A stretch of 60,137 nucleotides of DNA from a virus (Duplodnaviria > Caudoviricetes): the IMG/VR virus record IMGVR_UViG_3300010291_000001, positions 1-60,137 of that record; one strand, written 5' to 3'. This document shows positions 8,921-45,254 of this stretch, piece by piece (position 1 is the first letter of the stretch; every line of letters starts with the position of its first letter). The notes under the pieces are model-generated. The model was not told the DNA's origin and did not search any database. It saw only the letters and a list, made by a program, of their open reading frames with translations. A program made the translations under genes and the position numbers.

Positions 8921-9636
8921 CTTACGGATAACGTCCCTTTTACGGCCAGTCCGGTCTGCGAGACGGTGCCGATGTCGATGCCGTTCACCTGCAGTTTTAT
9001 CGGCGCCTGCCCCCTTACGTTTATGGAAAACCCGCTCGCCCCGTCATACTCAAGGTAAAGGCCGTCGCCGCGCCTGTTGCCTATTATGTCCGACGCCTCT
9101 TCTGCGGCAGTACGCTTCTTGGCATATACGACCTTTTTCCATTTTATCTTATTGCCGGAGATCTCCCCGGACTCGTGCCCCCCGGCCCACGACCTAAAAA
9201 AATCCACCACCCGCTCGAACAGCCTGCCCAGAAACGATATCTTGCTGTACCCGTGCGCCCCGACGCCCACCTGTACCGCGTCGCCGTCAAGCATCATTAC
9301 GTGCATACCGGACTTTGTCATGATCATCCTGCTGTTGGGGGGCGGGCTTTCGGGCAGGCCCGACTCTTTTACGCCGAAAGTTGCCCTGTCCTGTACGTCG
9401 GGTATGAAGTTGATGATGTACGTGCCGATCAGGCGGTGGTGATAATAAAGGCACGCGGCGCCGATCTCGGGCACAAACAGGTCGCCGGCCCCGTCGCTTG
9501 CCATTGAGTTGGAGGATATTATGGCGTTATGGAACTCTTCCCCGGTGGATAGATCTATCAGGGTGGCGACGCGCCTACTGTTATCGAAGGCGGCTACCTT
9601 TGCAACGCCTATGACCGGTTCGCGAGCGCCGAACAT
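8917..9636 (-). CDS. Putative baseplate assembly/spike protein (gpV-like OB fold)
   Basis: G.G.LFVPEIGA.C motif followed by a beta-rich C-terminus. Confidence 0.55.
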   Translation of the reverse strand: MFGAREPVIGVAKVAAFDNSRRVATLIDLSTGEEFHNAIISSNSMASDGAGDLFVPEIGAACLYYHHRLIGTYIINFIPDVQDRATFGVKESGLPESPPPNSRMIMTKSGMHVMMLDGDAVQVGVGAHGYSKISFLGRLFERVVDFFRSWAGGHESGEISGNKIKWKKVVYAKKRTAAEEASDIIGNRRGDGLYLEYDGASGFSINVRGQAPIKLQVNGIDIGTVSQTGLAVKGTLSVR

Positions 9637-9639
9637 GGC

Positions 9640-10491
9640 CTACTTCCGTATCAGCTTTTTGATTTTCGGGAGCACCCCGCCGATCGTCTTACTGGCTTTC
9701 GGAAGTATTGCGCCGAGCTTTTCTCCCGGCCCGCCGACGTACGGCGCCAGGGCCGGAACAAGCCCGGCCCCGGCAGCAAGAGCGCCCATTTTTATCCCGG
9801 CGTCCCTGTACGTCGCCATCGCCCTGTCGAGAGCTTCCTTGTCCTCTTTGGACGAGAGGTGCTTCTTGGCTTTCGCCGTCGCCAGCCCTTCAGAGATAAG
9901 CGGCGCAAGCGCCAGCGGCGCGGTAAGTATTGCGGCTATCCCCAGCGGCACCGCAATAGGCGACCGGGCCAGCAGTGCTCCGATGCCGGAAAGCGCAAGA
10001 CCCAACGGTATCGGGGATGCCACCTGCGGCAGAAGGGTCGCCAGTATATTTGTGTTGAGGTGCCCTATTTCGTGGGCGGCGATCGCGCCCGCGGCCGGCA
10101 CCGTATTAGACACAAAAGCCATGTTCAGTCCAGGGAAGGCGATTCCACCCCCACCGCCTATCGCCTGCCCCATAAACTCATACAGCGACGCACCATACAG
10201 CTCGCGCTCGTATTTTGCAATATCCTTGTCTTTGTGAATGCCGGCCAGCCGCTCCGCTTCTTTTCTGATGGTGGGACCGTGCATTTTACCGAGATGCCTG
10301 CTTAGTGCGTCCCTGGCCTTCGCAATGCTGCTGTCCTGGTCAAACACAATCAGCAGGGGTTTGTGTGTATCCCGGAGCGGAGCGGTCATGTTGTTGTATA
10401 TTTCGGCAATCTGCTTTTTCGCAGAATCGTGTATGCTGTCCGGTAGAACAAGTTTCATTTGTTTTCCCCTTCCAGCCTGACCAGCCGCCAT
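9640..10491 (-). CDS. Putative membrane zinc metallopeptidase
   Basis: AAHEIGH (HExxH), two hydrophobic helices, then EGLAT as third-ligand region; basic amphipathic tail. Confidence 0.7.
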   Translation of the reverse strand: MAAGQAGRGKQMKLVLPDSIHDSAKKQIAEIYNNMTAPLRDTHKPLLIVFDQDSSIAKARDALSRHLGKMHGPTIRKEAERLAGIHKDKDIAKYERELYGASLYEFMGQAIGGGGGIAFPGLNMAFVSNTVPAAGAIAAHEIGHLNTNILATLLPQVASPIPLGLALSGIGALLARSPIAVPLGIAAILTAPLALAPLISEGLATAKAKKHLSSKEDKEALDRAMATYRDAGIKMGALAAGAGLVPALAPYVGGPGEKLGAILPKASKTIGGVLPKIKKLIRK

Positions 10492-12596
10492 TTATCGTCC
10501 GGCTGCTTCAGGAGAATAAACTCGTTTCCTATATCGCCCAGCGATTTCGCCTTTTTGCCGGTTATCGAAAACCTTATCCTGTCGGGCGTGCTGTATTTTA
10601 TATTGGCGACGCCCTGAAACACGGTTGATACCGTCCCCTTGCCGTAGCCGCCCGGTATGGTTCCCCTGAAACGGAAGTAACTGAGCGGGTGAGACGCCTG
10701 TCTTGCGACAAGCGTCGTTTTGTGTTGCTCGTCCGGCAGCCTGATGGTGGCCCATGAGTGTCCTGCCCGCGCCTTCTTGTCCCACATCCTTATGTCATAA
10801 TGTTTATGCCTGGCCCTGTGCCGCTGTATGACAAACGGCCACTTTTCGTTTTCGGTGCTCGTGATCTCGTGTATGCCTCTTGCCCTGTAGTCATGGCCGG
10901 ACCCGAGCTTTCTTATCGACGCCATCTGTTTTGCGAGCCGGCCGACGCCCCGTATAAACCCCAGCCCCCCGACCGCCCGGGCGGCTGCCCACGATGCCCC
11001 GCGCCCCAGGCCTCTTATACCGGACAGTATCCTACCCCTTCTCCTGATAATGGAGGGAAGCGTAAGTGCGCCCATTGTAACAGCCCCGCCCATGAGCGCA
11101 GCGCGCTGTCTCGGCGACATCGTCCATCGCGGGGTTTGTATGGCGTTCCAGAAATCTTTTACGGCTTTTTCCTTGCTTTCGGCCACGCGGTACACGTGTT
11201 GGTCTATGGCTCCGTCCCCGGTCTTGGGATCCGCTATATATTTATTGACCACCACCCTTCTCTGACCGGCAGGAAACGCCCGCAGGCCCCCGCGCCGCAC
11301 CCCGCGCCCGATTATCTGTTTTATTTTCATTGGATTATAATGGCCGTCCAGCAGGGATATCATGGTAGTGTCCGGCAGGTTAAGCCCCTCAGCCCCGGCC
11401 CCCGTTATCAACAGGATACGCTTGTTTCCCTTCCTGAAGTTGTCTACCGCCTGCTCTTTGAGATTTTGAGGCATCCCACCGGTAAACTTGGCAAATGGAA
11501 TGTTAAGCTTCGAAAGGGCTGTGCCCAGCGTCCTGGTCCCGTGATTCTTGAAGCTGGAATACATAAGAACACGGTTACGCGGGTCTGTGGCTATATGGTC
11601 GAGTGCGTCTTTTACGGCCCTTACGGCCTTTGAGCTGGCAAACGGCATACTGCGCTTTGAGGCGGTCAGGTATCCCGGATCATTGCTCACCTGTCTTGCC
11701 GCCATGGCCCTGTTGACGATGCGCTCAGCCAGGTTTATATCGAGTTTCTTGTCTTTGAGCAGGGATATCTCTCTTTTCGACAAGTCCTTCCTAAGCGCCC
11801 TCCTGTAGGCTGTACGCTGTACCTGGTTCATCGGCACTATAACGAATTGCTCTTTTACGGAGGGCATGTCGGGGGCTTTGGCTGTTGGCATCATAAACAC
11901 GTCGCCGAACATCCTCGCCATGGTTCTTTGATTATAATAGCCTTTCAGCTCGCCGGACCCCGGCTTGCCGGTTACTATCGCCCTGATATGCTCCATTACC
12001 CCGCGCAGGCGCCGGTTTTCGAACTTGCGGCTGAATTCCCCGATTTTCATTGGCCTTGGAGAAATTACGTTGTGGATGTTTAGTGCTTCATAAACATTGT
12101 TTTGCGCCGGTGTTGCGGTAAGGCCTATCATGTGCTTTGACCGGCCCCGCAGCCTGCGGAGTACGGCGTGATTTACAGTCGTTTTGTCCTTGGCCCGATG
12201 AATTTCATCTGCTATGACAGTGTCGTAGCCGGTAAGCCGGGGCGCGTTTTTGCGGGCCAGGTCATAGGATATTACCGAAAAGTCTCTGTTCCTGAATCTG
12301 TCTATATCTCTCGATGAGTTGATGACGCCCACCGACGCATTTGTGTACTTTCTGACATTATCGGCGAAATTGCGTTTCAGGGCGGCCGGAACGACAACCA
12401 GCGCGTTGCGCGACCTGCCGGTCTCTCTGAGCCTCAGTGCCGCAGCTATGCTGGCAAGGGTCTTGCCCGTGCCGGTGTCGGCCGCGTTTACGCCGCTTCC
12501 TTGGCGCTCAATGAATTTGACGAAATTCGCCTGGTCGCCGGTGAGGCGGACGCCTTTTTTGAGGCCTGGAATATCGGCAAAGTCGTTAGTCTTCAT
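10455..12596 (-). CDS. SNF2-family helicase fused to a LigD-type 3'-phosphoesterase domain
   Basis: DTGTGKT, DEIH, TATP, AGAEGLNL, QIIGRGVR; C-terminal FVIQRH...HYDIR...SWA...HPLSY..F.GTIP.GYGKG.V. Confidence 0.85.
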   Translation of the reverse strand: MKTNDFADIPGLKKGVRLTGDQANFVKFIERQGSGVNAADTGTGKTLASIAAALRLRETGRSRNALVVVPAALKRNFADNVRKYTNASVGVINSSRDIDRFRNRDFSVISYDLARKNAPRLTGYDTVIADEIHRAKDKTTVNHAVLRRLRGRSKHMIGLTATPAQNNVYEALNIHNVISPRPMKIGEFSRKFENRRLRGVMEHIRAIVTGKPGSGELKGYYNQRTMARMFGDVFMMPTAKAPDMPSVKEQFVIVPMNQVQRTAYRRALRKDLSKREISLLKDKKLDINLAERIVNRAMAARQVSNDPGYLTASKRSMPFASSKAVRAVKDALDHIATDPRNRVLMYSSFKNHGTRTLGTALSKLNIPFAKFTGGMPQNLKEQAVDNFRKGNKRILLITGAGAEGLNLPDTTMISLLDGHYNPMKIKQIIGRGVRRGGLRAFPAGQRRVVVNKYIADPKTGDGAIDQHVYRVAESKEKAVKDFWNAIQTPRWTMSPRQRAALMGGAVTMGALTLPSIIRRRGRILSGIRGLGRGASWAAARAVGGLGFIRGVGRLAKQMASIRKLGSGHDYRARGIHEITSTENEKWPFVIQRHRARHKHYDIRMWDKKARAGHSWATIRLPDEQHKTTLVARQASHPLSYFRFRGTIPGGYGKGTVSTVFQGVANIKYSTPDRIRFSITGKKAKSLGDIGNEFILLKQPDDKWRLVRLEGENK

Positions 12597-21932: not shown

Positions 21933-22648
21933 TGGAAAAGGATACTTGTCAGGGGATAATCGAGAAGCTGGCCGGCGATAAAGGCGTTACGGTCGATCAG
22001 GCCGGGCCGTTTCTCAAAAAGCTCGTTGATAAAATAAAGGCCGCTGAAAGCCGGCCAGTTAACCATGAGGCTGAGATGTATAAAGCCGCAGACGCGGACG
22101 AGCTGGCCGCTCACTGCATAGCGGCGGTCCGTGAGGAGCTCATGAAGTACGGGGACGTTTATAAAGACGCCGGCCCCGGCTCCAAGATTGGAGCATGGCT
22201 GAAACCCACCGCCCCGATGCTTGCGGCAATAGGCGTAACATTGGGGGTCGGTGAGCTCAGGAACCTGTTGCGCAGCGTACACAGCAGCAAGAAAGTGGAA
22301 AGAAGCCGCGAGTGGCTTAAGCGGAACGACCCGGAGCTGGCAAAAGACCCCAAGTTTAACTTTTATTTCAATACGCTGAAAGACTTCGCTCCGCACGTGG
22401 CAGCCAACCCACTGTCCGCGATACCCATTCTTCAGGAAATGAAGGAGTGGGGCTATGTCGGCCAGAACACGATAAACGCCATTACCAAAATAGAGCAGAC
22501 GCTCGGCGGCATAGAAAAACAGGAACACGAGGCCGGCAGGGCCTTTGAAGAGGCGGCAGCGAAGAGAATGCAGTTAATGGGAAGCATCGGCGAGCTGTTC
22601 GGCGAGCCCGGCGCCGGACCCAGCGCGGGAGGTGGGGGGACTTCGTGA
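21932..22648 (+). CDS. Putative virion protein with a hydrophobic helix
   Basis: Coupled ORF; KLAG; ...F.TLKDFAPHVAANPL.A. Confidence 0.55.
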   Translation: MEKDTCQGIIEKLAGDKGVTVDQAGPFLKKLVDKIKAAESRPVNHEAEMYKAADADELAAHCIAAVREELMKYGDVYKDAGPGSKIGAWLKPTAPMLAAIGVTLGVGELRNLLRSVHSSKKVERSREWLKRNDPELAKDPKFNFYFNTLKDFAPHVAANPLSAIPILQEMKEWGYVGQNTINAITKIEQTLGGIEKQEHEAGRAFEEAAAKRMQLMGSIGELFGEPGAGPSAGGGGTS

Positions 22649-24894
22649 GCGACATTATAAAAGAAATATCGCTTGACGTTATCAGCAAGCTCGCCGATGA
22701 TACAGCCGCCAAAGAGGTCGTCAGTCCGTATATCCCCGACGACGTCAAGAAGTATATAGAAGAAAACCGCCAGGCGTGGAAGGCCGACGACAAGCATATA
22801 TATCTTCTTGTCGTGGCGCTCAGCGCGTCCGACTTCTTTGGACCCAACACGAGGGGTGACTATTTCCCCGAAAGCGCCCTTCTCGGCATACAGCACGACT
22901 GGGAGGCAAAAAGGTACAATCCGAAGGGCAAGAAGGACACGCGGGTCCCCAGGTACAAGACGTTCGAGTGGGCGAAGGTTTACCGAGACCACAACCAGAA
23001 CCAGCCCATAGGCGACGTTCTCAAGGCGTTCTGGGATGATGACTGCAAAAGAGTGCTCTGCGTGGTCAGGGTAAGTAAGGATCTCGCCCCCGATGTTGAG
23101 CAGATGATAGCCTCCGGTATGAGGCCGGCCTTCAGTATGGGACTGAAAGAACCGTTCGACTTCTGCCTTCACCCCGATATGCCGGTTTTTACGCAGGCGG
23201 GCTGGAGGAAGATAAAAGAAGTCAAGGTAGACGACTACGTATTTACCAGCTCCCGCGCCTTCAAGCGCGTAAAAGGCGTGTCGTCGAGCTTTCCCGAAGA
23301 GAGGGTTTCCATTTCCACCTCGCTTATGCCGGATCTTGTCGTGTCGCCTAACCATTTTATATTCATTGAGGGTGAATCCGGCCTCGTAAAGCGCCCGGCG
23401 TGTCAGCTTAATATAGGCGATAAGATGGTTATACCGCTTTACGCCGGATGCGAAGATGACGACGTAAACAGCAATAATGTTATACTATCGTCCATGTTCA
23501 GGCGGGACAGTGGGGCATCAAAGGAAAAATACCTGGGAGAGGCGATAGGCCTTTTATTTAACGGCAAGTGGGCCGTGCGCGGCAAGTGGTACAGCATCAG
23601 CGCGCTGGGCCTGGCCGACGCCGAGGGCCTGTTGAACGCTTTCTGGTCTCTTGGAATACCTGCAAGGCTTGATAGTCACAAGCTGTTTGTGTATACGCCG
23701 GGGCTCGTCTATAGCCTTCTGGGCTGTGACGACTACATTGTCGAGCCAAAGGATATAGATGGCCTTGGCGTGTACTTTAATGGAACGCACATTGTTGTCC
23801 CCATAACCGAGATCAGGCGCAGCGCGAACGACGAGGAGTTTTTCGATCTTACTGTCGAGGAAGACGAAAACTATCTTTCGTATTTTCTTGTAAGTAATTG
23901 CTCTATATGTGGTTACAAGAGAACCCCCGGCGATGTCGGTTGCCTGCATACGCGCCTGTCCCTGAACGAGTTTGACGAACATACCCGCAAGAAGATATAT
24001 CGCATTAACAAGGTCTTCTTCTTTCATGACCTTTCAGTTGTTGGGCAGAACCCGGCGGATAAAACCGCATGGGGTCTTTTGAAGGTTGCCTCAGAGAAAG
24101 CCATACGGTCGGGATCTACCTCGCAAAACATAGAGAAAACAGTCTTCAAAAGGCACCCGGCCACCGTAATAGAACCGGACAGCCCGTCCGGTAAGGTATT
24201 CATGCGGGTGCAGATGTTGTCGGGGTCCGAGCGCCCGTTTAACGACAGCGTTCTTTCCGCGCTTGCCAAACGGGGCCCGGACGCGGTGTTTTCAGCCCTT
24301 ATGAAGCTGGGCATGGTTCTGTCGCCTTCTGAATATTACAAATATAGGCTTGCCGGCGGCGATAAGCTGGAGTCCCCGCCCGCCCCTCCGTCCGATGTCG
24401 CCATGGACAGTGTTATGCCGGTCCTGGAGCCGATGATGTCCGAGAGGTCCTGTCTGTATGAGCCAATGAGGGCCAGGATAATCCGAATGATAATTATCGG
24501 GAAAAGACCTGACCCTCTGCCGGACGCAAGCAAGGTCGGATCCGAATATCTGTCATACCGCGACAGCGTGAACGCCATAGTGCTGAACAAAGAGGCCTCG
24601 GCTGCAAGCGTCATATTGCCCGCGGCGGGCTTTTTTGCTCCGTATTACCTGTCGGCCCATTACCGCAGGAGGGCGTTCGAGGGATATCCGCAGGGGATGA
24701 TAGCGCGGGCGGTATCAAGATACGCCCTTCCTCTTGCTGTTGCCGGAGCGATAGGCGCTCCCCTGGCCGCACAAAAGGGCAAGGCCTGGGTAAAGGCCCT
24801 GTACCGCGGGCTCTCGAAAGCCAAGGTTGCCGGCGGCGACGAAAACATGATTATAGCTGATTTGCTTGCTGATTATGAGGTTGCGTTGAATTAA
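22645..24894 (+). CDS. Prohead-protease-like protein containing an intein
   Basis: GPN.RGDYF, YRDH.N, FSMG...FDF|CSICG...C.H, F.DLSVV..PADKTA; lies upstream of scaffold and capsid genes. Confidence 0.7.
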   Translation: MSDIIKEISLDVISKLADDTAAKEVVSPYIPDDVKKYIEENRQAWKADDKHIYLLVVALSASDFFGPNTRGDYFPESALLGIQHDWEAKRYNPKGKKDTRVPRYKTFEWAKVYRDHNQNQPIGDVLKAFWDDDCKRVLCVVRVSKDLAPDVEQMIASGMRPAFSMGLKEPFDFCLHPDMPVFTQAGWRKIKEVKVDDYVFTSSRAFKRVKGVSSSFPEERVSISTSLMPDLVVSPNHFIFIEGESGLVKRPACQLNIGDKMVIPLYAGCEDDDVNSNNVILSSMFRRDSGASKEKYLGEAIGLLFNGKWAVRGKWYSISALGLADAEGLLNAFWSLGIPARLDSHKLFVYTPGLVYSLLGCDDYIVEPKDIDGLGVYFNGTHIVVPITEIRRSANDEEFFDLTVEEDENYLSYFLVSNCSICGYKRTPGDVGCLHTRLSLNEFDEHTRKKIYRINKVFFFHDLSVVGQNPADKTAWGLLKVASEKAIRSGSTSQNIEKTVFKRHPATVIEPDSPSGKVFMRVQMLSGSERPFNDSVLSALAKRGPDAVFSALMKLGMVLSPSEYYKYRLAGGDKLESPPAPPSDVAMDSVMPVLEPMMSERSCLYEPMRARIIRMIIIGKRPDPLPDASKVGSEYLSYRDSVNAIVLNKEASAASVILPAAGFFAPYYLSAHYRRRAFEGYPQGMIARAVSRYALPLAVAGAIGAPLAAQKGKAWVKALYRGLSKAKVAGGDENMIIADLLADYEVALN
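23164..23898 (+). mobile_element. Intein (245 aa) with a degenerate LAGLIDADG remnant
   Basis: Starts CLHPDMPVFT..G..KIKEVKVDD.V, block B SPNH, block F FDLTVEEDENY, ends VSN before Cys+1. Confidence 0.88.
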
Positions 24895-32618: not shown

Positions 32619-35027
32619 ATGCCCACGCAAATATATCCGCCCAGGGCCGTAGTAAGACAGGAAGTGGTCGGCACGTCGATACCGATGGAGCTGCCCTCCC
32701 AGCCGGTCATTCTGGTCGGCCCGAACAACCAGGTTGTCTACAGGAAACTCGGCGACGAGGAATATACCGGCACGAGCATGACTTTATCCTATCCCGGCCT
32801 TGTTGCCGGGTCGTCCGTAAACACCGGCACGGTAGGCGTTTGGGCTTATTTCGCCGACACGAACGGCGTTTACCGTGTTTATGACGTTCTCGGATCGGTC
32901 ACCCCCCTTGCCGGCGGCATAACAGTACCGTCTTCCCTTAACGTCGAATGGGCCGTCGAAGACGGAGTTTCCGGCAGGATATCTTCAATTAATTACGCGC
33001 CGACTGCGGGAAAGTACTACCAGTTGTACGATGGAACGGCCTCGGGTAGTGTAATCGTCGTAACCGGTGACGTTGAGAGCGAGTTCAAGACGGGCTCGAC
33101 GATTTTTAATCCATTTATTTATGTTACGACCGGATCGTACACCGGTTTTCTCAAGATAACGGACGTGTCAGTGTCCGGGGACACCACGCTCACGGTTGAA
33201 TGGGGCTCAGGCTTCGCAGGATTCGCGACGGGCGAGCCCGTGGAGTTTTACCCGGTACAATACAGCACGCTCAGGGAAGCCGACGTTGATTTCGGGAATG
33301 TTACGTACGATGACAGGCTGAACCTTGAGGAAGGCTACTACGCGGGCAACTATACGGTGCTCGGCAAGGGCGTGGATACGTCCGTATTCATTTATTTTGC
33401 GGGCGCCGTGTATCAATCGGCCCAGATGAGCATCAGCGGCCAGACAATTACCGTTACTAACGCGGGCTTTGATAACATTGTCAAGGTTGGAGACAGGCTC
33501 TGGGTAATAGACGCCACGGGCGCAAATACCTCTTCGTTCAGGGTTATTAAGGTAACCCCGGAGACTATTACGGTAGACGGCAGCATATCCTCGGTATCAA
33601 ACGCCCACTTCCTTGTGGGGAGGTATCTACAGACCTCTACAGCCCTCTCCTACGCAGTTTACCATACTGCGGCTATAGGCAGTGCCGAATTGCCGTCTTC
33701 GCGCTTCCTGGTGAGCTACAGAGCGCTCAGGACAGACGGCGCGAACGTTCTTTATGAAGCCAGCTCGATTCAGGACGCATATGACGATCTCGGCCTGGCG
33801 ATACCGGAGAACCCGCTCGGGCTTGCTGTTAACATTGCAATATCTTCGACTGGCGGATACCCGGTTTATTACATGAAAATAGCGTCGGACGATGCAAACG
33901 GATATAATGACGCAATTACGACACTTGAGGGTCTCAGCGGGCCGTATTACCTTGTTCCGCTTACCCACTCCCCGACGGTACACGCTGCGGTCAAGCAGCA
34001 CGTCGACGTTATGTCAAACGACGACAACCAGGTTGAGCGTATAGCGCTCATAAACCGCGTGCTGTACGTATACGACGCCCGCGAAAGCGGAACGACAAAC
34101 GGCACGTTTGACAGCTCCACTGTGTTCCGCGTTGCCGGCACGGATATCACGGGAAGCGTTTCCATGGGTAACATCCTGTATATATCCTACAATGACGCCG
34201 AGGGTTATCAGCAGACGGCAAGCCTGACCATCCAGGGTGCCGTTTTTACCGGTGGAAATACGGATATAACGCTTACCGGACCGTTTGCCGGCTGGGAGGC
34301 GTTCACGGGTTCGTCCAGGGTGTGGGAAGTCCGTACAGCGGCCCTGAGCAAAACGGGGCAGGCGGGCTATATTGCCGATTACGGCAGGTCATTCAAGCAT
34401 AAGCGTGTTACGCTTGTGTGGCCCGATTACGTCAAATACAACTACACGGTCAACGAGGCCGGCGACGACCCGTACCACGACACGTCAACCGTATATGAGG
34501 GTGCCGAGCTCGGCGGGTATTACGCCGCCGCGGAGGTTGCGGCCCTTGCGTCAAGCCGTTCGGATCCGAGCAGGCCGATGAACAAGGTGCAGTTGAGCTC
34601 GTTCAGCGGCGCCCTGCACGCAAACGGCTATTTTACGCCATACCAGCTCAACGTCATGGCTGCCGGCGGCGTGATGATACTCGTGTCCGAAACCGACGAG
34701 GGTCCCCTGCAGATACGGGACCAGCTTACAACCGATACGTCCGTCGAAGAGACGATACAGTTCAGCTCCGTTACCGCGCTTGACTACGGCGCCAAGATGC
34801 TCAGGTCCGTCCTGACGAAGCTTACCGGAGTATACAAGCAGGACGAGGATTTCTTCAGCAAGCTGAACATGTACATCAACGGCGTGGTTGAGCAGCTCGT
34901 GAACAGCAAGATATGGAAAAACGCCAGGATACTCACGATAAAGCCGGTCGGCTCCACGGTGTACGTGACGATCGCGGTGACGCTGTACGACGTGGCCAAG
35001 ACCATCGACATAACGCTGAAAGTATAA
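32619..35027 (+). CDS. Contractile tail sheath protein
   Basis: 802 aa; YY.VPLT, HV..MS....ER, GYYAAA..A, QLN.MA.GG, IRDQLTTD.S, S....DY.AK.LR. Confidence 0.85.
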   Translation: MPTQIYPPRAVVRQEVVGTSIPMELPSQPVILVGPNNQVVYRKLGDEEYTGTSMTLSYPGLVAGSSVNTGTVGVWAYFADTNGVYRVYDVLGSVTPLAGGITVPSSLNVEWAVEDGVSGRISSINYAPTAGKYYQLYDGTASGSVIVVTGDVESEFKTGSTIFNPFIYVTTGSYTGFLKITDVSVSGDTTLTVEWGSGFAGFATGEPVEFYPVQYSTLREADVDFGNVTYDDRLNLEEGYYAGNYTVLGKGVDTSVFIYFAGAVYQSAQMSISGQTITVTNAGFDNIVKVGDRLWVIDATGANTSSFRVIKVTPETITVDGSISSVSNAHFLVGRYLQTSTALSYAVYHTAAIGSAELPSSRFLVSYRALRTDGANVLYEASSIQDAYDDLGLAIPENPLGLAVNIAISSTGGYPVYYMKIASDDANGYNDAITTLEGLSGPYYLVPLTHSPTVHAAVKQHVDVMSNDDNQVERIALINRVLYVYDARESGTTNGTFDSSTVFRVAGTDITGSVSMGNILYISYNDAEGYQQTASLTIQGAVFTGGNTDITLTGPFAGWEAFTGSSRVWEVRTAALSKTGQAGYIADYGRSFKHKRVTLVWPDYVKYNYTVNEAGDDPYHDTSTVYEGAELGGYYAAAEVAALASSRSDPSRPMNKVQLSSFSGALHANGYFTPYQLNVMAAGGVMILVSETDEGPLQIRDQLTTDTSVEETIQFSSVTALDYGAKMLRSVLTKLTGVYKQDEDFFSKLNMYINGVVEQLVNSKIWKNARILTIKPVGSTVYVTIAVTLYDVAKTIDITLKV

Positions 35028-35038
35028 AGGAGCAGAAC

Positions 35039-35716
35039 ATGCCGGACCTTTCGGATAAACTCGGAGATATAGGACTGGAAATAGAAAACCTGCGGGCCGC
35101 AACGGCTACCGGGCAGATATATTCTGCCAAGGAAAGCCAGATATACGCAGCCCCGCCCAGGTTTTCGATGCTGGCCGGCGGTTCAAGACTGTACCCGATA
35201 GTTAGCGTCGACGTCCTTCGCATAGACCAACAGGCTGCAGTCAACAGCTCGGCAGGCATAGGCTCGCCGCTTGTTACCTGGAACGCAAGGTCGTCCGTTG
35301 CTGCGGGGTTCGGCAGGGGGGTGTTCAATGTACCGTCCCTCATGCGCGCCCTGTACGCGTACTACCCCATGTCCAGCATAGGACAGCAGATAGCGGACCT
35401 GTCACAGTACGAGCTGAGATCGTTCAACGTGGAACCAAACAGGGCGGTGACGTTCCCGCAGCTGGAAAACCTCAGCCTTGAGAAATCCCCCGGGTACAAG
35501 AACCTTGCGTTGAACATGGAGGCCAGCCTGGTCGACTATCCGTTCGGGCTGCTGGTTGTGTTCAAAACCCAAAACCTGGACCAGGGCAGCATTGTCGGGT
35601 ACTTCCTCAGCGAAGCAAGAATCAGAGCGCTCAGCCTGCAGATAGCGGGACCGTCCACGCTCGTCTCGGAAGAGGTTTCGGCAGTAGCGACGGCGTTCCA
35701 CCCGGTAGCCATGTAA
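35039..35716 (+). CDS. Putative tail tube protein
   Basis: Directly after the sheath gene, AAGGAG RBS, IGS motif, beta-rich C-terminus. Confidence 0.55.
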   Translation: MPDLSDKLGDIGLEIENLRAATATGQIYSAKESQIYAAPPRFSMLAGGSRLYPIVSVDVLRIDQQAAVNSSAGIGSPLVTWNARSSVAAGFGRGVFNVPSLMRALYAYYPMSSIGQQIADLSQYELRSFNVEPNRAVTFPQLENLSLEKSPGYKNLALNMEASLVDYPFGLLVVFKTQNLDQGSIVGYFLSEARIRALSLQIAGPSTLVSEEVSAVATAFHPVAM

Positions 35717-35733
35717 ACAGACAGACAAAACAT

Positions 35734-35769
35734 AAAAAAATGGGGGCCGTAATGGCCCCCTTTTTATTT
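35734..35769. terminator. Bidirectional intrinsic terminator
   Basis: A7-GGGGGCC-GTAAT-GGCCCCC-T5 between convergent genes. Confidence 0.85.
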
Positions 35770-37246
35770 ACACCTTGAAGCCTATTTTTCTTTTCTCTTG
35801 TTTCACGGCGCCGGACTGGGCGCTGCAGGCCCACAGCCTGGCCCACTCGCGCATATGGCGTATCTGGTCCTCGCGGGCCCGCGATATTCTTATCACGTAC
35901 TTTTCCGCCTCCTGGAGCGTGTCGAACGCCCTGGAAAGCCTCGCCAGATTGCGTATCTCGGCGCCGGTCATGTCGCGGATGACCTTTTTGTCCGGCTTGT
36001 GTGTGACCTTGAAGTAGTCGAACCATAGCTCGGCTATCCTCATCGCCTCCTCGTCCGACGGCATGTCGATGAAGAAGATCGAGTCCCACCTTTCAGCCCG
36101 TATGAATTCCGGCGGGAGGGCGTTGATGTTATTGGAGGTGGCAACCACGTAGCTGCCGTTCTTCCTGTCGCTCAGCCACTTCAAGAATTGGGAGAAGGTT
36201 CTGCTCCCCGTCCCCCCGTCGGTCATATTGCTGCTCGCCATTCCGCCGACGCTCTTCTCGATCTCGTCGATGAACACGACGCAGTCTCCGACCGCATCAA
36301 GGGTTTCTATCGCGGCTTTCATTCTCGCTTCGGATTCGCCCACGAACCGGTTGAACACCCGATCCATGTAAAATGTTATCGTGGGTATCCCGAGCTCTTT
36401 GCCTAACGCCCGACTGAACGCGGACTTGCCGGTTCCGGGTATGCCTACCAGCAGAACTCCGCGGCTTTCGTCCAGCCTCGCTGTTTTTCTGACGAAGGTT
36501 TTCAGGGCCTCGAGCCCTACAATGTAGTCGAACGAGTCGACTTCCGTATATTCGTGCAGCTGCAGGACTTCCGAGTTGTTGAGCTTCGATCTCTTCATCT
36601 CGTGAAGATCTTCCGGGGTCTGGCATACCAATTCTGCTATTAGGAGTTCCTTGCGGTTCAGGCCCACGGAGGCTCCCGGGTGACCGAGGACGATACTATT
36701 TGTTTTGTTCTTGTTGAGCGACGCCAGCACGTCGTCCATCAACAAGGCGGTTTCATACTTGTCCGGAACCGGAATCTTTACCGATAGCGCGGAGCTGATT
36801 ATGTCCTGGGGCACGTTTTCACTGTAGCTGGCTTCCAGTATTATAGTAACCCCGGGCACCCTTTCGCCGTATATGGCCCGGATGTATGACAGGGCCGTCA
36901 GCACCGCCGGGTTAGGCGTTGTTGTTCCTGGTATGGATAGACACGAAAACGTCGGTATCACGAATATGCCCGTTACCGGCTGCTCAAACGCCTGGTCATA
37001 TATCATCCTAAACGCCATGGTCGGCTCGGTAATGCTGGTGCCGTCCGGCGCCTTTAATTCCTCTCCTGCGCTCTTGCCTGTCATGCACTTGATACCGTTC
37101 GTCGGCGACAGGGCGTAAATGTCCCTGTTAAGCACTACGTTATTTCTTTTTGCCTCGAACTCGAGATGTTTTACGGAGGCGTATATCTCAGGAGCGCGCG
37201 CAAGTATCACGTCTGCGCCGCGCATAATCAGGTCCAGTAGTTTCAT
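35768..37246 (-). CDS. AAA ATPase, Ycf46-like
   Basis: GLEALK, GIPGTGKS, FVGESE, FIDEIEK, ATSNNINALPPEFIRAERWD. Confidence 0.88.
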   Translation of the reverse strand: MKLLDLIMRGADVILARAPEIYASVKHLEFEAKRNNVVLNRDIYALSPTNGIKCMTGKSAGEELKAPDGTSITEPTMAFRMIYDQAFEQPVTGIFVIPTFSCLSIPGTTTPNPAVLTALSYIRAIYGERVPGVTIILEASYSENVPQDIISSALSVKIPVPDKYETALLMDDVLASLNKNKTNSIVLGHPGASVGLNRKELLIAELVCQTPEDLHEMKRSKLNNSEVLQLHEYTEVDSFDYIVGLEALKTFVRKTARLDESRGVLLVGIPGTGKSAFSRALGKELGIPTITFYMDRVFNRFVGESEARMKAAIETLDAVGDCVVFIDEIEKSVGGMASSNMTDGGTGSRTFSQFLKWLSDRKNGSYVVATSNNINALPPEFIRAERWDSIFFIDMPSDEEAMRIAELWFDYFKVTHKPDKKVIRDMTGAEIRNLARLSRAFDTLQEAEKYVIRISRAREDQIRHMREWARLWACSAQSGAVKQEKRKIGFKV

Positions 37247-37825: not shown

Positions 37826-38531
37826 GAAACTCCTTTACTTCAAGGTCAACACCGAATATCTGTGCCACGTATCTATACATATTATAGATCTCGCTGCTTA
37901 TTATCGCTCCTGCCGATCGCAGCTCCGGCTCGAGATACAGCTTTTTTGCCGTCGGCGCGTGCTGGCAGCCGTCCAGCGTTGTCTCCACCGGTGCCTCAAG
38001 GAGAATTCTTGTATGTGTCAGCGAGTACATGCTGTTCAACAAGGCAATCCTGCGTTTTCTTTTTGGTATTGACACGGCCCCGCATATGCCGGCCGGCATT
38101 TTGATGATAATGACAATGTAGCCTTTGTTGTTCATTTGCTTTATAAATTCACCGACCCTGCCGGTCGGCTCTATGTTCGGATATGGAAACACCGCCGCCT
38201 TCGGCGGCAGAAGCTCTCTCATCTGAGACACTATGTGTTCAAGATACAACAAGTACCGTCGCTCGTCCTGGCTGGGCGGGTCTTTCAAAAAAACAATCCT
38301 TGACAGATTTTTACTGAACGGGTGATACATTGATGATAACGGCAGCTCGAGCGCCTTGGCATATAATACGGCGTCGTCGTCTGTTGGTACGTACTTGCCG
38401 TCGGGGCCGATGAGGTCTCTTGTCTTCCATGCTGGAATTCCAACTCCCACCCCGCGAGCCACCACGTTGGCGTGGCCAAGATAGTCGCTGAATTTTTTGA
38501 TGTTTTCTTTAATAACCATGCTAAGACACAT
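37809..38531 (-). CDS. Degenerate XRE-HTH/ImmA-IrrE-like protein
   Basis: YAKALELPLSSM (HTH end); G....RIALLNS..S.THTRILLE where HExxH would be expected. Confidence 0.4.
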   Translation of the reverse strand: MCLSMVIKENIKKFSDYLGHANVVARGVGVGIPAWKTRDLIGPDGKYVPTDDDAVLYAKALELPLSSMYHPFSKNLSRIVFLKDPPSQDERRYLLYLEHIVSQMRELLPPKAAVFPYPNIEPTGRVGEFIKQMNNKGYIVIIIKMPAGICGAVSIPKRKRRIALLNSMYSLTHTRILLEAPVETTLDGCQHAPTAKKLYLEPELRSAGAIISSEIYNMYRYVAQIFGVDLEVKEFLDGRV

Positions 38532-39117
38532 GTTTTGCCTCCAATATCTTGGCCGCCTTTCGGGCGACTATGGTCCAGCTGTCGCCCAACTCCTCGTGCA
38601 GGTAGTAATGTCCCAACACTCGCTGCTCCGTGTCGTCCGCCCCGTACACTTTATTATATCCACATACCATGAGCCTCGGCGGCTCATCATCAAAAATTCG
38701 CACCCAAACCTCGACTTCCGCTGCAGCAAACTCTCTTACCGCGTACATCTTTTTCGGTAATTCCGGTTGAGGATGGGGGTCCGTGGGGGCGTGTAGGTGG
38801 GCGGCAACAACCAGTACGTATTTATTGCGCAGCCTGTCATACCTCATTTCGACCACCATGGTTTTGATCAGGTCTTCGCCGACATTCCGGCCCAGCGTCC
38901 CGATGGCCAGGCTGTTGTCCCGGGTGGTCCCATCATAAAAGGCGCGGGTGTACGTACGATATCCACCGTCTTCCAGGCCGTGGACAGTGTACAGCTTGCC
39001 CTGCTTGCCAATCTTAAGCTTGTTTCCCATCACTATCATTGAGTACGGCGCAGTGCACCTGAAGGTTTCCTTCAGGATTGCTCCAATCGTCGGCTTGTGG
39101 TTTGTTACGAATTTCAT
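38521..39117 (-). CDS. Hypothetical protein
   Basis: GGAGG RBS. Confidence 0.6.
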   Translation of the reverse strand: MKFVTNHKPTIGAILKETFRCTAPYSMIVMGNKLKIGKQGKLYTVHGLEDGGYRTYTRAFYDGTTRDNSLAIGTLGRNVGEDLIKTMVVEMRYDRLRNKYVLVVAAHLHAPTDPHPQPELPKKMYAVREFAAAEVEVWVRIFDDEPPRLMVCGYNKVYGADDTEQRVLGHYYLHEELGDSWTIVARKAAKILEAKHVS

Positions 39118-39133
39118 CCGTTGCCTCCCATGT

Positions 39134-39164
39134 AAAAATAGGGGGGGGCGCCGTCGCCCCCCCC
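39134..39164 (-). terminator. Intrinsic terminator
   Basis: G8CG/CGC8 stem followed by TATTTTT on the minus strand. Confidence 0.7.
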
Positions 39165-39178
39165 CCTCCAGAATCCGC

Positions 39179-39616
39179 CTACTTCACCTGTTGCGGGGCG
39201 GCCAGCACCTTATAGTACTGACCAACCGTCTCCACGATGTCGGCAGGCAGCCCCTCCCGCAGGAAGAACTTGCCGCCGATCACCGTACCCGCGGGCATGG
39301 TTATCATCGAGCCCGCGCAGCGCTCGACGTACCATGCTGCCTGGCCCAGCCGGTGCTTGGGCTGGACCAGGATCATCCGGAAGGTGGGATGCACGCCCAC
39401 CCATTTTTCGCGGGTGGGCTGCTCGGACTGAAGGTGCCTTACCCTCAGTCCTTCTCCGTACCCCGTTAAAACCACGCCCTCTGGGATAAAGAGGGCGATT
39501 CGCGGACCCAGCGGCGGGATCTCTACCGTACTGAGTCCGCCCTCGCCTCCCTGGGGGAGGCGAATATTGGCGACGACGGGCCCGTCGTCGCTGATAACTC
39601 CAAAGCGCAGAAACAT
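39179..39616 (-). CDS. Hypothetical protein
   Basis: AAGGAG RBS, followed by a terminator. Confidence 0.6.
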   Translation of the reverse strand: MFLRFGVISDDGPVVANIRLPQGGEGGLSTVEIPPLGPRIALFIPEGVVLTGYGEGLRVRHLQSEQPTREKWVGVHPTFRMILVQPKHRLGQAAWYVERCAGSMITMPAGTVIGGKFFLREGLPADIVETVGQYYKVLAAPQQVK

Positions 39617-39636: not shown

Positions 39637-39996
39637 CTATAGGACTTCGCCGTATGTCTTTGCGACGATGTCCCCCACAATCGCCGACGACTCTGAAGTC
39701 ACCAATCTTTGCAGGTTCTCGGTGCGGTACACGGTATACCGCACCAGGCGGGCTCCCGCCTTTTCCATGTCCTTTTCAGTCCATTCGGCACCCCTTGGGG
39801 GGGTGTCGAATTCGATGGCGTAGATCGTTTTCGCTTCCGCCGCTAGGTGTAGCGGCAGATTGCCGATAACGTGCTTATTTTTCACGCTTTCGGCATCAGC
39901 GTGCGCCAACACCGGCGCCCCCCCAAATTGGGGGTAATGCGCTTTGATCCACTTTACCGCACCTTCGTGACGCGACACAATGACATGACCTTGCAT
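39637..39996 (-). CDS. csx16: Csx16 (Cas_VVA1548) family protein, putative ring nuclease
   Basis: VSRH.GA..W, H.D, VIGNLPLHLAAE, P..RG.E.T..DM...GA.L..Y.V signature. Confidence 0.85.
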   Translation of the reverse strand: MQGHVIVSRHEGAVKWIKAHYPQFGGAPVLAHADAESVKNKHVIGNLPLHLAAEAKTIYAIEFDTPPRGAEWTEKDMEKAGARLVRYTVYRTENLQRLVTSESSAIVGDIVAKTYGEVL

Positions 39997-40059
39997 CTCT
40001 CTCTCCTCTCACGTATCATGGTGCCACCACCACGGAACCGCTCCATGGTAAAGGCACCT

Positions 40060-44508: not shown

Positions 44509-44892
44509 TCATTTTGCCTTGCCTTTCCTTTTTTTGCCGCGGCCTTGGACCGGTGGCTTTTTCTTTTCGCCGGTTAGCCTTTCGACCGCCTTCCTTAGCA
44601 GCGCATTGTTATCCGTCAGGACGGCAATAACTTCGTCCGTACACGCCCGAACAAACCGCATCAAGTCGCCTGCGATTACCGCCTTGTCCGCCCGCTGGTG
44701 CAGAAGCCTCCTGTGGGCGTTACTGATTGCCTGTTCAAGGAAGAGCCCGTAATATCCCGGGTTTTTGGGCGTCACGATTGTCGAGCCGTCCTTGGTCTTG
44801 CTTTCTTTGATTCCATCCGCGACGATCCACCCGCTGCTGTCTCTGCACAGGCAGATCTTCGGGGTTTTGCATATTTCTAAAACAACTTCCAT
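44509..44892 (-). CDS. Hypothetical protein
   Basis: TAATG coupling with the nuclease gene. Confidence 0.6.
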   Translation of the reverse strand: MEVVLEICKTPKICLCRDSSGWIVADGIKESKTKDGSTIVTPKNPGYYGLFLEQAISNAHRRLLHQRADKAVIAGDLMRFVRACTDEVIAVLTDNNALLRKAVERLTGEKKKPPVQGRGKKRKGKAK

Positions 44893-45254
44893 TAACCTCT
44901 CCTTTTCTTTTTGGGGGGCCCGTATATCCGTATTGCGTATTGCGGGTATCTTATTTGAAATAACGCTGCGCGCAACGGTATATCGCGCACCATAAACCCT
45001 TTGTAGTCTTCGACTACCAGCGCCCACCCGTGAACGGTCTTTTCTTCGTAGATGAAATCCGGCGTCCAGTACAGCTTACGCCCGCTGATCGGGTTTACGC
45101 CTATTTCGAACTTGATTTGCCTCTTTAGCCCCCTTATTTCGCCCGCCCTCTCCAATAACTGAAGGTCGTTCCACCGCGCATACTCTCCCGAGCTGTCAAA
45201 CTTCTCGCCGGTAGCGGTAATTACGGGCTTGTTGTGATATTTGAATTTTGGCAT
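44892..45254 (-). CDS. DUF1064-family PD-(D/E)xK nuclease
   Basis: KYHNK, FDS..E..RW..L..LERAGEI..L.RQ..F, PDFIY, VVEDYKG. Confidence 0.85.
   Translation of the reverse strand: MPKFKYHNKPVITATGEKFDSSGEYARWNDLQLLERAGEIRGLKRQIKFEIGVNPISGRKLYWTPDFIYEEKTVHGWALVVEDYKGFMVRDIPLRAALFQIRYPQYAIRIYGPPKKKRRG

Follow-up and report, generated by a model that had tools for sequence, protein, structure and literature searches.

A Csx16-family gene on an uncultured phage record without type III CRISPR genes: a candidate anti-CRISPR ring nuclease

Background

Ring nucleases encoded by viruses show how phages defeat signalling by cyclic oligoadenylates (cOA), and only AcrIII-1 has been tested in depth. This report concerns a gene for a Csx16-family protein of 119 amino acids (aa) on the IMG/VR virus record IMGVR_UViG_3300010291_000001, a linear record of 60,137 bases that was analysed whole and is called the window below (coordinates in Table 1). 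For Csx16 (PF09652/TIGR02620), a review (PMC8284326) relates that ring nuclease activity was predicted on the strength of conserved His, Arg and Asp/Glu residues, and it describes a partial resemblance to DUF1874 (AcrIII-1/Crn2). Hoikkala et al. (PMC12409355) reported that purified Csx16 fully degrades cyclic tetra-adenylate (cA4) and is specific for it, and they counted Csx16 in 68 type III loci among 38,742 genomes. Their figures for phage genomes (n = 28,114) were Csx16 in 2, Csx20 in 4 and AcrIII-1 in 36. According to two further reports, viral ring nucleases can act as anti-CRISPRs (PMC12830947, PMC13148439).

Another CRISPR ring nuclease family carried by phages and plasmids is Crn4b; 11 phage genomes and 10 plasmids are described as carrying orthologues, for which an anti-CRISPR role is proposed and not shown (PMC12830947). 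The evidence status of Crn4b is the same as that of the gene studied here; unlike Csx16, it has an unrelated fold and a broad cA3/cA4/cA6 specificity in that account. An anti-CRISPR role for phage Csx16 is also already in print, as an untried proposal for two other phages, and is not new in kind; the gain of the present analysis is therefore breadth and a concrete candidate for testing, and no new principle. Full-text literature searches on Csx16 and Cas_VVA1548 found no published test of a viral Csx16.

For the window gene, the favoured and moderately probable reading is that of a stand-alone, homodimeric ring nuclease of the Csx16 family, expressed by the phage and cleaving host cA4 as an anti-type III CRISPR protein. 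The phage would express the gene during infection, the homodimer would cleave the cA4 made by Cas10 of a host type III CRISPR system, and the cA4-dependent effectors (Csx1, Can1/2, Cam1) would stay unactivated, with the messenger destroyed before they fire. The outcome would be a functional anti-CRISPR like AcrIII-1. The basis found here comprises family membership, conserved polar residues, a predicted fold and dimer, location on a phage, and the finding of no type III genes either in the window or in its complete phage relatives. The cleavage of cA4 by Csx16 is taken from the literature, and catalytic activity, cA4 as the substrate and protection of the phage would extend to the window copy by analogy.

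Family assignment and conserved motifs

The 119-aa protein matched Pfam PF09652 (Cas_VVA1548) with an E-value of 3.9e-12 and 46.6 bits (gathering cutoff 25), and the alignment was near end to end (profile positions 2-90 of 91). Searching the whole record in six frames recovered the match again. The full Csx16 signature reported in the original prediction, for which a hidden Markov model match to Cas_VVA1548 had been named as the check, is therefore genuine, and for the Pfam family it far exceeds what chance would give. The NCBIfam model TIGR02620 (Csx16, a hypothetical-equivalog domain model) gave 23.1 bits, under its curated cutoff of 46.35, so the protein was assigned to the Pfam family and not as a TIGR02620 equivalog; its resemblance to the seed Csx16 proteins falls short of close equivalence. 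Of 39 relatives, 22 matched TIGR02620 at E <= 0.01. The PHROG search gave no family for the protein, and there was no match to PF08960 (DUF1874) at E <= 1, which separates it at sequence level from AcrIII-1/Crn2. A search of 5.8 billion protein clusters gave 138 candidates, from which all 120 homologues (120/120) carried PF09652, and the closest non-self homologues showed 56-59% identity. An identical 119-aa protein is borne by a second contig of 128,584 bases.

Three motifs were seen in the protein, IVSRH (residues 6-10), GNLPLHLA (45-52) and PPRGAE (66-71). In an alignment of 39 homologues (A1), I6, V7, R9, H10, G45, P48, A52 and R68 were invariant, and S8, N46, L49, H50, L51, E62, P67, G69, E71, A80, G81, Y87 and V89 were at least 90% conserved. 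The conserved polar residues of the Csx16 family, which are proposed to bind and cleave cOA, are thus retained, with R9, H10 and R68 invariant and E71 at 90% or above. SRH and RGxE are common to the window protein and the Csx16 of Allochromatium, which is embedded in a type III-B locus and reads VSRH, RGRE and GSLPVNLA. Because this copy keeps VSRH and RGRE but has Asn at the position of H50, SRH and RGxE are family-wide and H50 is the mark of the window's subfamily.

The exchange of Asn for an invariant His50 in the window's clade could alter specificity or chemistry, and it bears on the possibility that the protein is mainly a cyclic-oligonucleotide sponge, or is a nuclease for some signal different from cA4 (cA3, cA6 or one of CBASS type), while still serving anti-defence. 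Csx15, a related predicted ring nuclease, is described as a good cA4 binder and a very slow nuclease (PMC13148439), and the window's clade is set apart from the CRISPR-embedded copies in the tree described below. By the argument of the same source, type III systems make so much cOA that sponging would counter them poorly, and its account of Csx15 states that the protein was not seen in phages. The Csx16 that was assayed is a cA4-specific nuclease in the published account (PMC12409355), and SRH and RGxE are retained in the window protein. A sponge or an enzyme for another signal is accordingly judged unlikely.

Predicted structure and dimer

The AlphaFold2 model of the protein had a predicted local distance difference test (pLDDT) score of 87.6, with predicted strands at residues 4-7, 29-30, 42-44, 57-62 and 83-87 and helices alongside. 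Beyond the Pfam domain, a C-terminal helix (92-110) is followed by a disordered tail. The predicted architecture is that of the family, a small stand-alone protein with a CARF-like/Rossmann-derived sheet and flanking helices, forming a homodimer. In the two-copy complex prediction the score was 0.74, compared with 0.26 for the best control; the mark used for a dimer was reached by 20 of 30 proteins solved as homo-pairs and by 1 of 23 solved as single chains. Three runs shared at least 95% of contacts, the partner pLDDT was at least 82, and the predicted interface comprised residues 49-62 (L49 and H50 included), strand 85-93 and the C-terminal helix. A homodimer is therefore predicted at the level of model confidence, which is no measurement.

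Foldseek comparison of the model with the PDB gave no match at E <= 0.001, and the structural scores against the AcrIII-1/Crn2 fold were weak. A PDB search with the family profile returned only designed ankyrin repeat proteins (DARPins) and ankyrin designs (E down to 3e-9, matches of 20-30 residues), because GNLPLHLAA mimics the ankyrin-repeat consensus. The matches were confined to this stretch (residues 45-53), and a DARPin/ankyrin relationship was rejected as motif mimicry. Such mimicry is a trap for automated annotation.

Compared with described Csx16 proteins, the window protein is alike in its full-length Pfam match, shared SRH and RGxE, small stand-alone form and predicted dimer, and its weak structural link to the Crn2/AcrIII-1 fold is as published. 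It differs in scoring below the TIGR02620 cutoff, in His50, in the C-terminal helix and tail, in belonging to a separate clade rich in viral contigs, and in that its gene is neither in nor near a type III locus.

The phage record and the search for type III genes

The record contained a terminase large subunit (phrog_675, E 2.6e-56), which identifies it as a phage; with this and its listing in IMG/VR, the gene is virally encoded. The terminase shared only about 25% identity with its counterpart in any cultured phage, which places the record in a distant lineage, and most of its large proteins were without a PHROG family. No matches were obtained in the 60,137 bases for RAMP genes, Cas10 palm2, Cas1 or DUF1874 (PF08960), and the repeat scan, which recovered both Allochromatium arrays as its positive control, found no CRISPR-like array. 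The absence of cas genes and of an array noted in the original prediction is thus borne out over the window, which covers about half of a genome since CheckV put the record at 47% complete.

Relatives on phages, plasmids, genomes and metagenomes

Relatives were gathered by a motif-seeded scan and were found on 21 IMG/VR contigs (from 39 pattern matches), 5 species-genome contigs (from 21) and 72 metagenome contigs (from 304). A profile search of 1.84 billion representatives gave 2,722 matches at E <= 0.001, the weak end of which may hold ankyrin-like false positives, 1,535 at E <= 1e-10 and 273 at E <= 1e-30. Cells seldom carried the family: in a sample of 401 genomes from one phylum, 1 had it. 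Annotated cellular and plasmid Csx16 proteins showed 32-38% identity over 72-81% of the length of the window protein.

In the collection of cultured phages, relatives were present in Methanobacterium virus Drs3 (ORF3) and Bacillus phage Shbh1 (gp42), in 4 records that represent 2 phages. These are probably the two phage genomes counted in PMC12409355. Like the window gene, they are orphan Csx16-family genes on tailed phages, lying among small hypothetical genes with no cas gene nearby. They differ in sharing about 40% identity over 55-69% of the window protein; the Drs3 copy fell outside the window's clade in the tree, and the Shbh1 copy, of partial coverage, was dropped from it.

Copies embedded in CRISPR loci had a different setting. 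On Allochromatium vinosum plasmid pALVIN01, csx16 is flanked by csm6 and cas2/cas1; cmr6 is found upstream, and two arrays are close by. Locus L091 is a genuine type III locus with Cmr2/Cas10, RAMP, Cas6, Cas_NE0113 and arrays; the Csx16 encoded there shares 37% identity with the window protein. Array-like repeats were confined to the Allochromatium control, L091 and, as an ambiguous case, L040 (3.5 copies of 74 nucleotides (nt) at the contig end). A tblastn search of low sensitivity, in which 7 type III proteins of L091 and L029 were the queries and 104 sequences the targets, matched only these two loci. No RAMP match was found in any of the 22 viral records, window included; of these, three had terminal repeats.

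The incomplete state of the record, together with the identical protein on the 128,584-base contig, leaves some room for the gene being the off-switch of a cOA-signalling module of the phage itself, encoded in the unsequenced half of its genome and serving self-regulation and not counter-defence. However, RAMP genes were found in none of the 7 related viral records that were at least 90% complete, and csx16 in CRISPR loci lies within a few kb of effector and cas genes, whereas the 60 kb of the window have none. Self-regulation is therefore considered very improbable.

No widely recurrent neighbour was seen among 92 non-redundant loci (49 of at least 5 kb; 3,441 open reading frames (ORFs) compared all against all), in which only Csx16 and its antisense shadow ORFs recurred. 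The second and third largest clusters were such shadow ORFs. Those that followed either stemmed from a single set of near-identical contigs or were phage genes shared by 3-4 loci (DNA methylase, SNF2 helicase, terminase, ERF, DUF1064). When 15 window proteins were searched by tblastn against 26 related loci, only Csx16 matched. Such solitary and mobile occurrence in phages that are unrelated is in keeping with an anti-defence gene.

RAMP genes were present in 2 of the 5 bacterial genomes with relatives, on other contigs, and for this reason and in view of their neighbours CRISPR adjacency was rejected for the Moorellaceae (L024) and Alcaligenaceae (L023) copies. The neighbours of the Moorellaceae copy were HerA, DNA methylase, transposase and MoxR/VWA genes, and those of the Alcaligenaceae copy were genes without a family. 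The Moorellaceae copy (9647-10276) has degenerate motifs, with SNNP for SRH and PQGGE for PRGxE, and is probably inactive or repurposed. A complete IMG/VR phage with terminal repeats (L014, 64,275 bases) carries tandem Csx16-like genes at 9361-9771 and 9995-10516. The upstream copy is degenerate (VTEH for SRH, PKGRR for PRGxE), and the downstream copy keeps SRH and has PSRPG instead of PRGxE.

The plasmid search gave 6 matching records, in which the Allochromatium copies were CRISPR-embedded and an archaeal plasmid copy was an orphan. On plasmid pMESIL02 of Allomeiothermus silvanus (L030, 8998-11013), a 671-aa protein annotated as Csx16 carries the domain N-terminally, joined to a long and uncharacterised C-terminal part. 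An ankyrin-repeat gene immediately precedes its gene, and no cas gene occurs in the 9 kb examined.

Phylogenetic analysis

A maximum-likelihood tree was generated from 87 domain sequences over 115 columns and was unrooted; 6 of 93 rows with fewer than 70 profile positions had been dropped (L027, L033, L079, L093, L102 and L104). A branch with ultrafast bootstrap (UFBoot) support of 98 and a Shimodaira-Hasegawa-like approximate likelihood ratio (SH-aLRT) of 94 split 63 rows from 24. The 63-row clade contained 20 of the 22 viral rows including the window, which branched near its base, together with 40 metagenome rows of unknown context and 3 genome rows. Among the remaining 24 were both CRISPR-embedded copies, which were sisters (support 100/95), both plasmid copies, phage Drs3 and the viral row L013. 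The sample was drawn with the motif GN[LI]PLHLA, so canonical Csx16 is under-sampled, and most metagenome rows came from short contigs. For these reasons, and with 115 columns and no root, the tree suggests, and does not prove, that the 63-row group is mostly a mobile-element clade. An unrooted, motif-sampled tree also cannot show that the gene was captured from a host, as the original prediction had it.

The branch between the CRISPR-embedded copies and the window's clade would also be expected if this mostly mobile-element clade had diverged to a function unrelated to cOA, such as another nucleotide- or RNA-directed activity in phage metabolism, with only the fold and a few polar residues kept. 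The failed TIGR02620 cutoff points the same way, as does the finding of type III genes beside none of the 5 genome copies in the flanks examined; moreover, one relative is named a YaiI/UPF0178 protein by one source, and one member weakly matches that NCBIfam model (E 0.0019). Against such a divergence, the invariant residues lie in the same motifs as in CRISPR-embedded Csx16, the predicted dimer and the structural neighbours of the model are those of cOA-binding proteins, and the solitary, mobile carriage suits an anti-defence gene. An unrelated function is considered quite unlikely, and the anti-type III ring nuclease remains the favoured reading.

A wider reading joins these results: a large Csx16 clade, mostly of phages and mobile elements, with its own invariant GNLPLHLA histidine and separate from the CRISPR-embedded genes, would form a dedicated, horizontally mobile anti-type III family in uncultured phages that is far commoner than 2 in 28,114. 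It might also be an evolutionary bridge from AcrIII-1/Crn2 to the CARF-like ring nucleases, since a structural neighbour is shared. This wider reading is put forward tentatively, with the balance slightly against it. Should this clade prove to be active, the viral anti-type III enzymes would include Csx16 beside AcrIII-1 and the proposed Crn4b, and from the 21 IMG/VR contigs and 273 cluster representatives (E <= 1e-30) it would follow that cultured collections greatly understate how common such genes are in uncultured phages. The survey adds evidence that orphan Csx16 genes occur much more often on uncultured phages than the published frequency for cultured phages suggests, and that they may be a clade of their own.

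Gene surroundings in the window

The csx16-like gene sits within a long minus-strand block of small genes, mostly ORFans, and by inspection of the sequence an AGGAG Shine-Dalgarno motif lies 6 nt 5' of its ATG. The features discussed are shown in Table 1.

Table 1 Location and description of features in the 60,137-base window
Feature	Coordinates	Strand	Description
csx16-like gene	39637-39996	-	119 aa; ATG start; Cas_VVA1548 domain at residues 6-89
Ribosome-binding region of csx16-like gene	39997-40012	-	Reads GTGAGAGGAGAGAGAG ahead of ATG
145-aa ORFan	39179-39616	-	ATG 20 nt past csx16 stop; own AAGGAG site
Intrinsic-terminator-like hairpin	39130-39165	-	11-bp stem, 10 G-C pairs, then T-run
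198-aa ORFan	38521-39117	-	Beyond the terminator-like site; membership in csx16 unit not supported
Bidirectional terminator-like hairpin	35742-35760	both	7-8 G-C-rich pairs; a T-run on each strand
Convergent gene	34913-35716	+	
AAA ATPase gene	35768-37246	-	Convergent with 34913-35716
DUF1064 protein	44892-45254	-	38.2 bits
SNF2/DEAD-type helicase with C-terminal LigD 3'-phosphoesterase domain	10455-12596	-	713 aa; LigD 39.2 bits; unusual fusion
ORF with sub-threshold intein splicing-domain match	22645-24894	+	749 aa; residues 218-412; 30.2 bits, cutoff 35.8; no other family

From its spacing to the csx16-like gene and its own AAGGAG site, the 145-aa ORF is probably co-transcribed with it. The hairpin that follows, read at 39165-39140 on the minus strand and 14 nt past the stop of the 145-aa ORF, was the top-ranked terminator-like site of the region by consensus match only, and in the simplest reading it is likely the 3' end of a two-gene unit of csx16 and the 145-aa ORF. 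The second hairpin lies between the convergent genes and is the downstream end of the minus-strand block that holds csx16.

Neither the 145-aa nor the 198-aa ORF could be assigned to a family in Pfam, NCBIfam or PHROGs, the Atlas offered no usable neighbour (Atlas models with pLDDT of 0.33 and 0.43), and each ORF matched only itself among the 5.8 billion clusters. The original prediction had named these neighbours as possible further anti-defence genes; with self-matches only, this part is unsupported, and also not refuted. Its anti-type III interpretation of the csx16-like gene is plausible and in line with the current literature.

Relatives of the DUF1064 protein lie about 1 kb upstream of a Csx16-like gene in three related metagenome contigs (L096, L097 and L100), and no other window gene within 10 kb of csx16 was seen again close to a Csx16 relative.

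Other features of the record

Two further genes are listed in Table 1, the helicase-LigD fusion and the ORF with the intein-like match, which from that sub-threshold match may be an intein-interrupted gene. At the start of the record (1-122), a tandem repeat of 15/30/45 nt with a unit of about ATCGGCGCCGAACAG and 65-79% matches lies inside an ORF that runs off the contig end.
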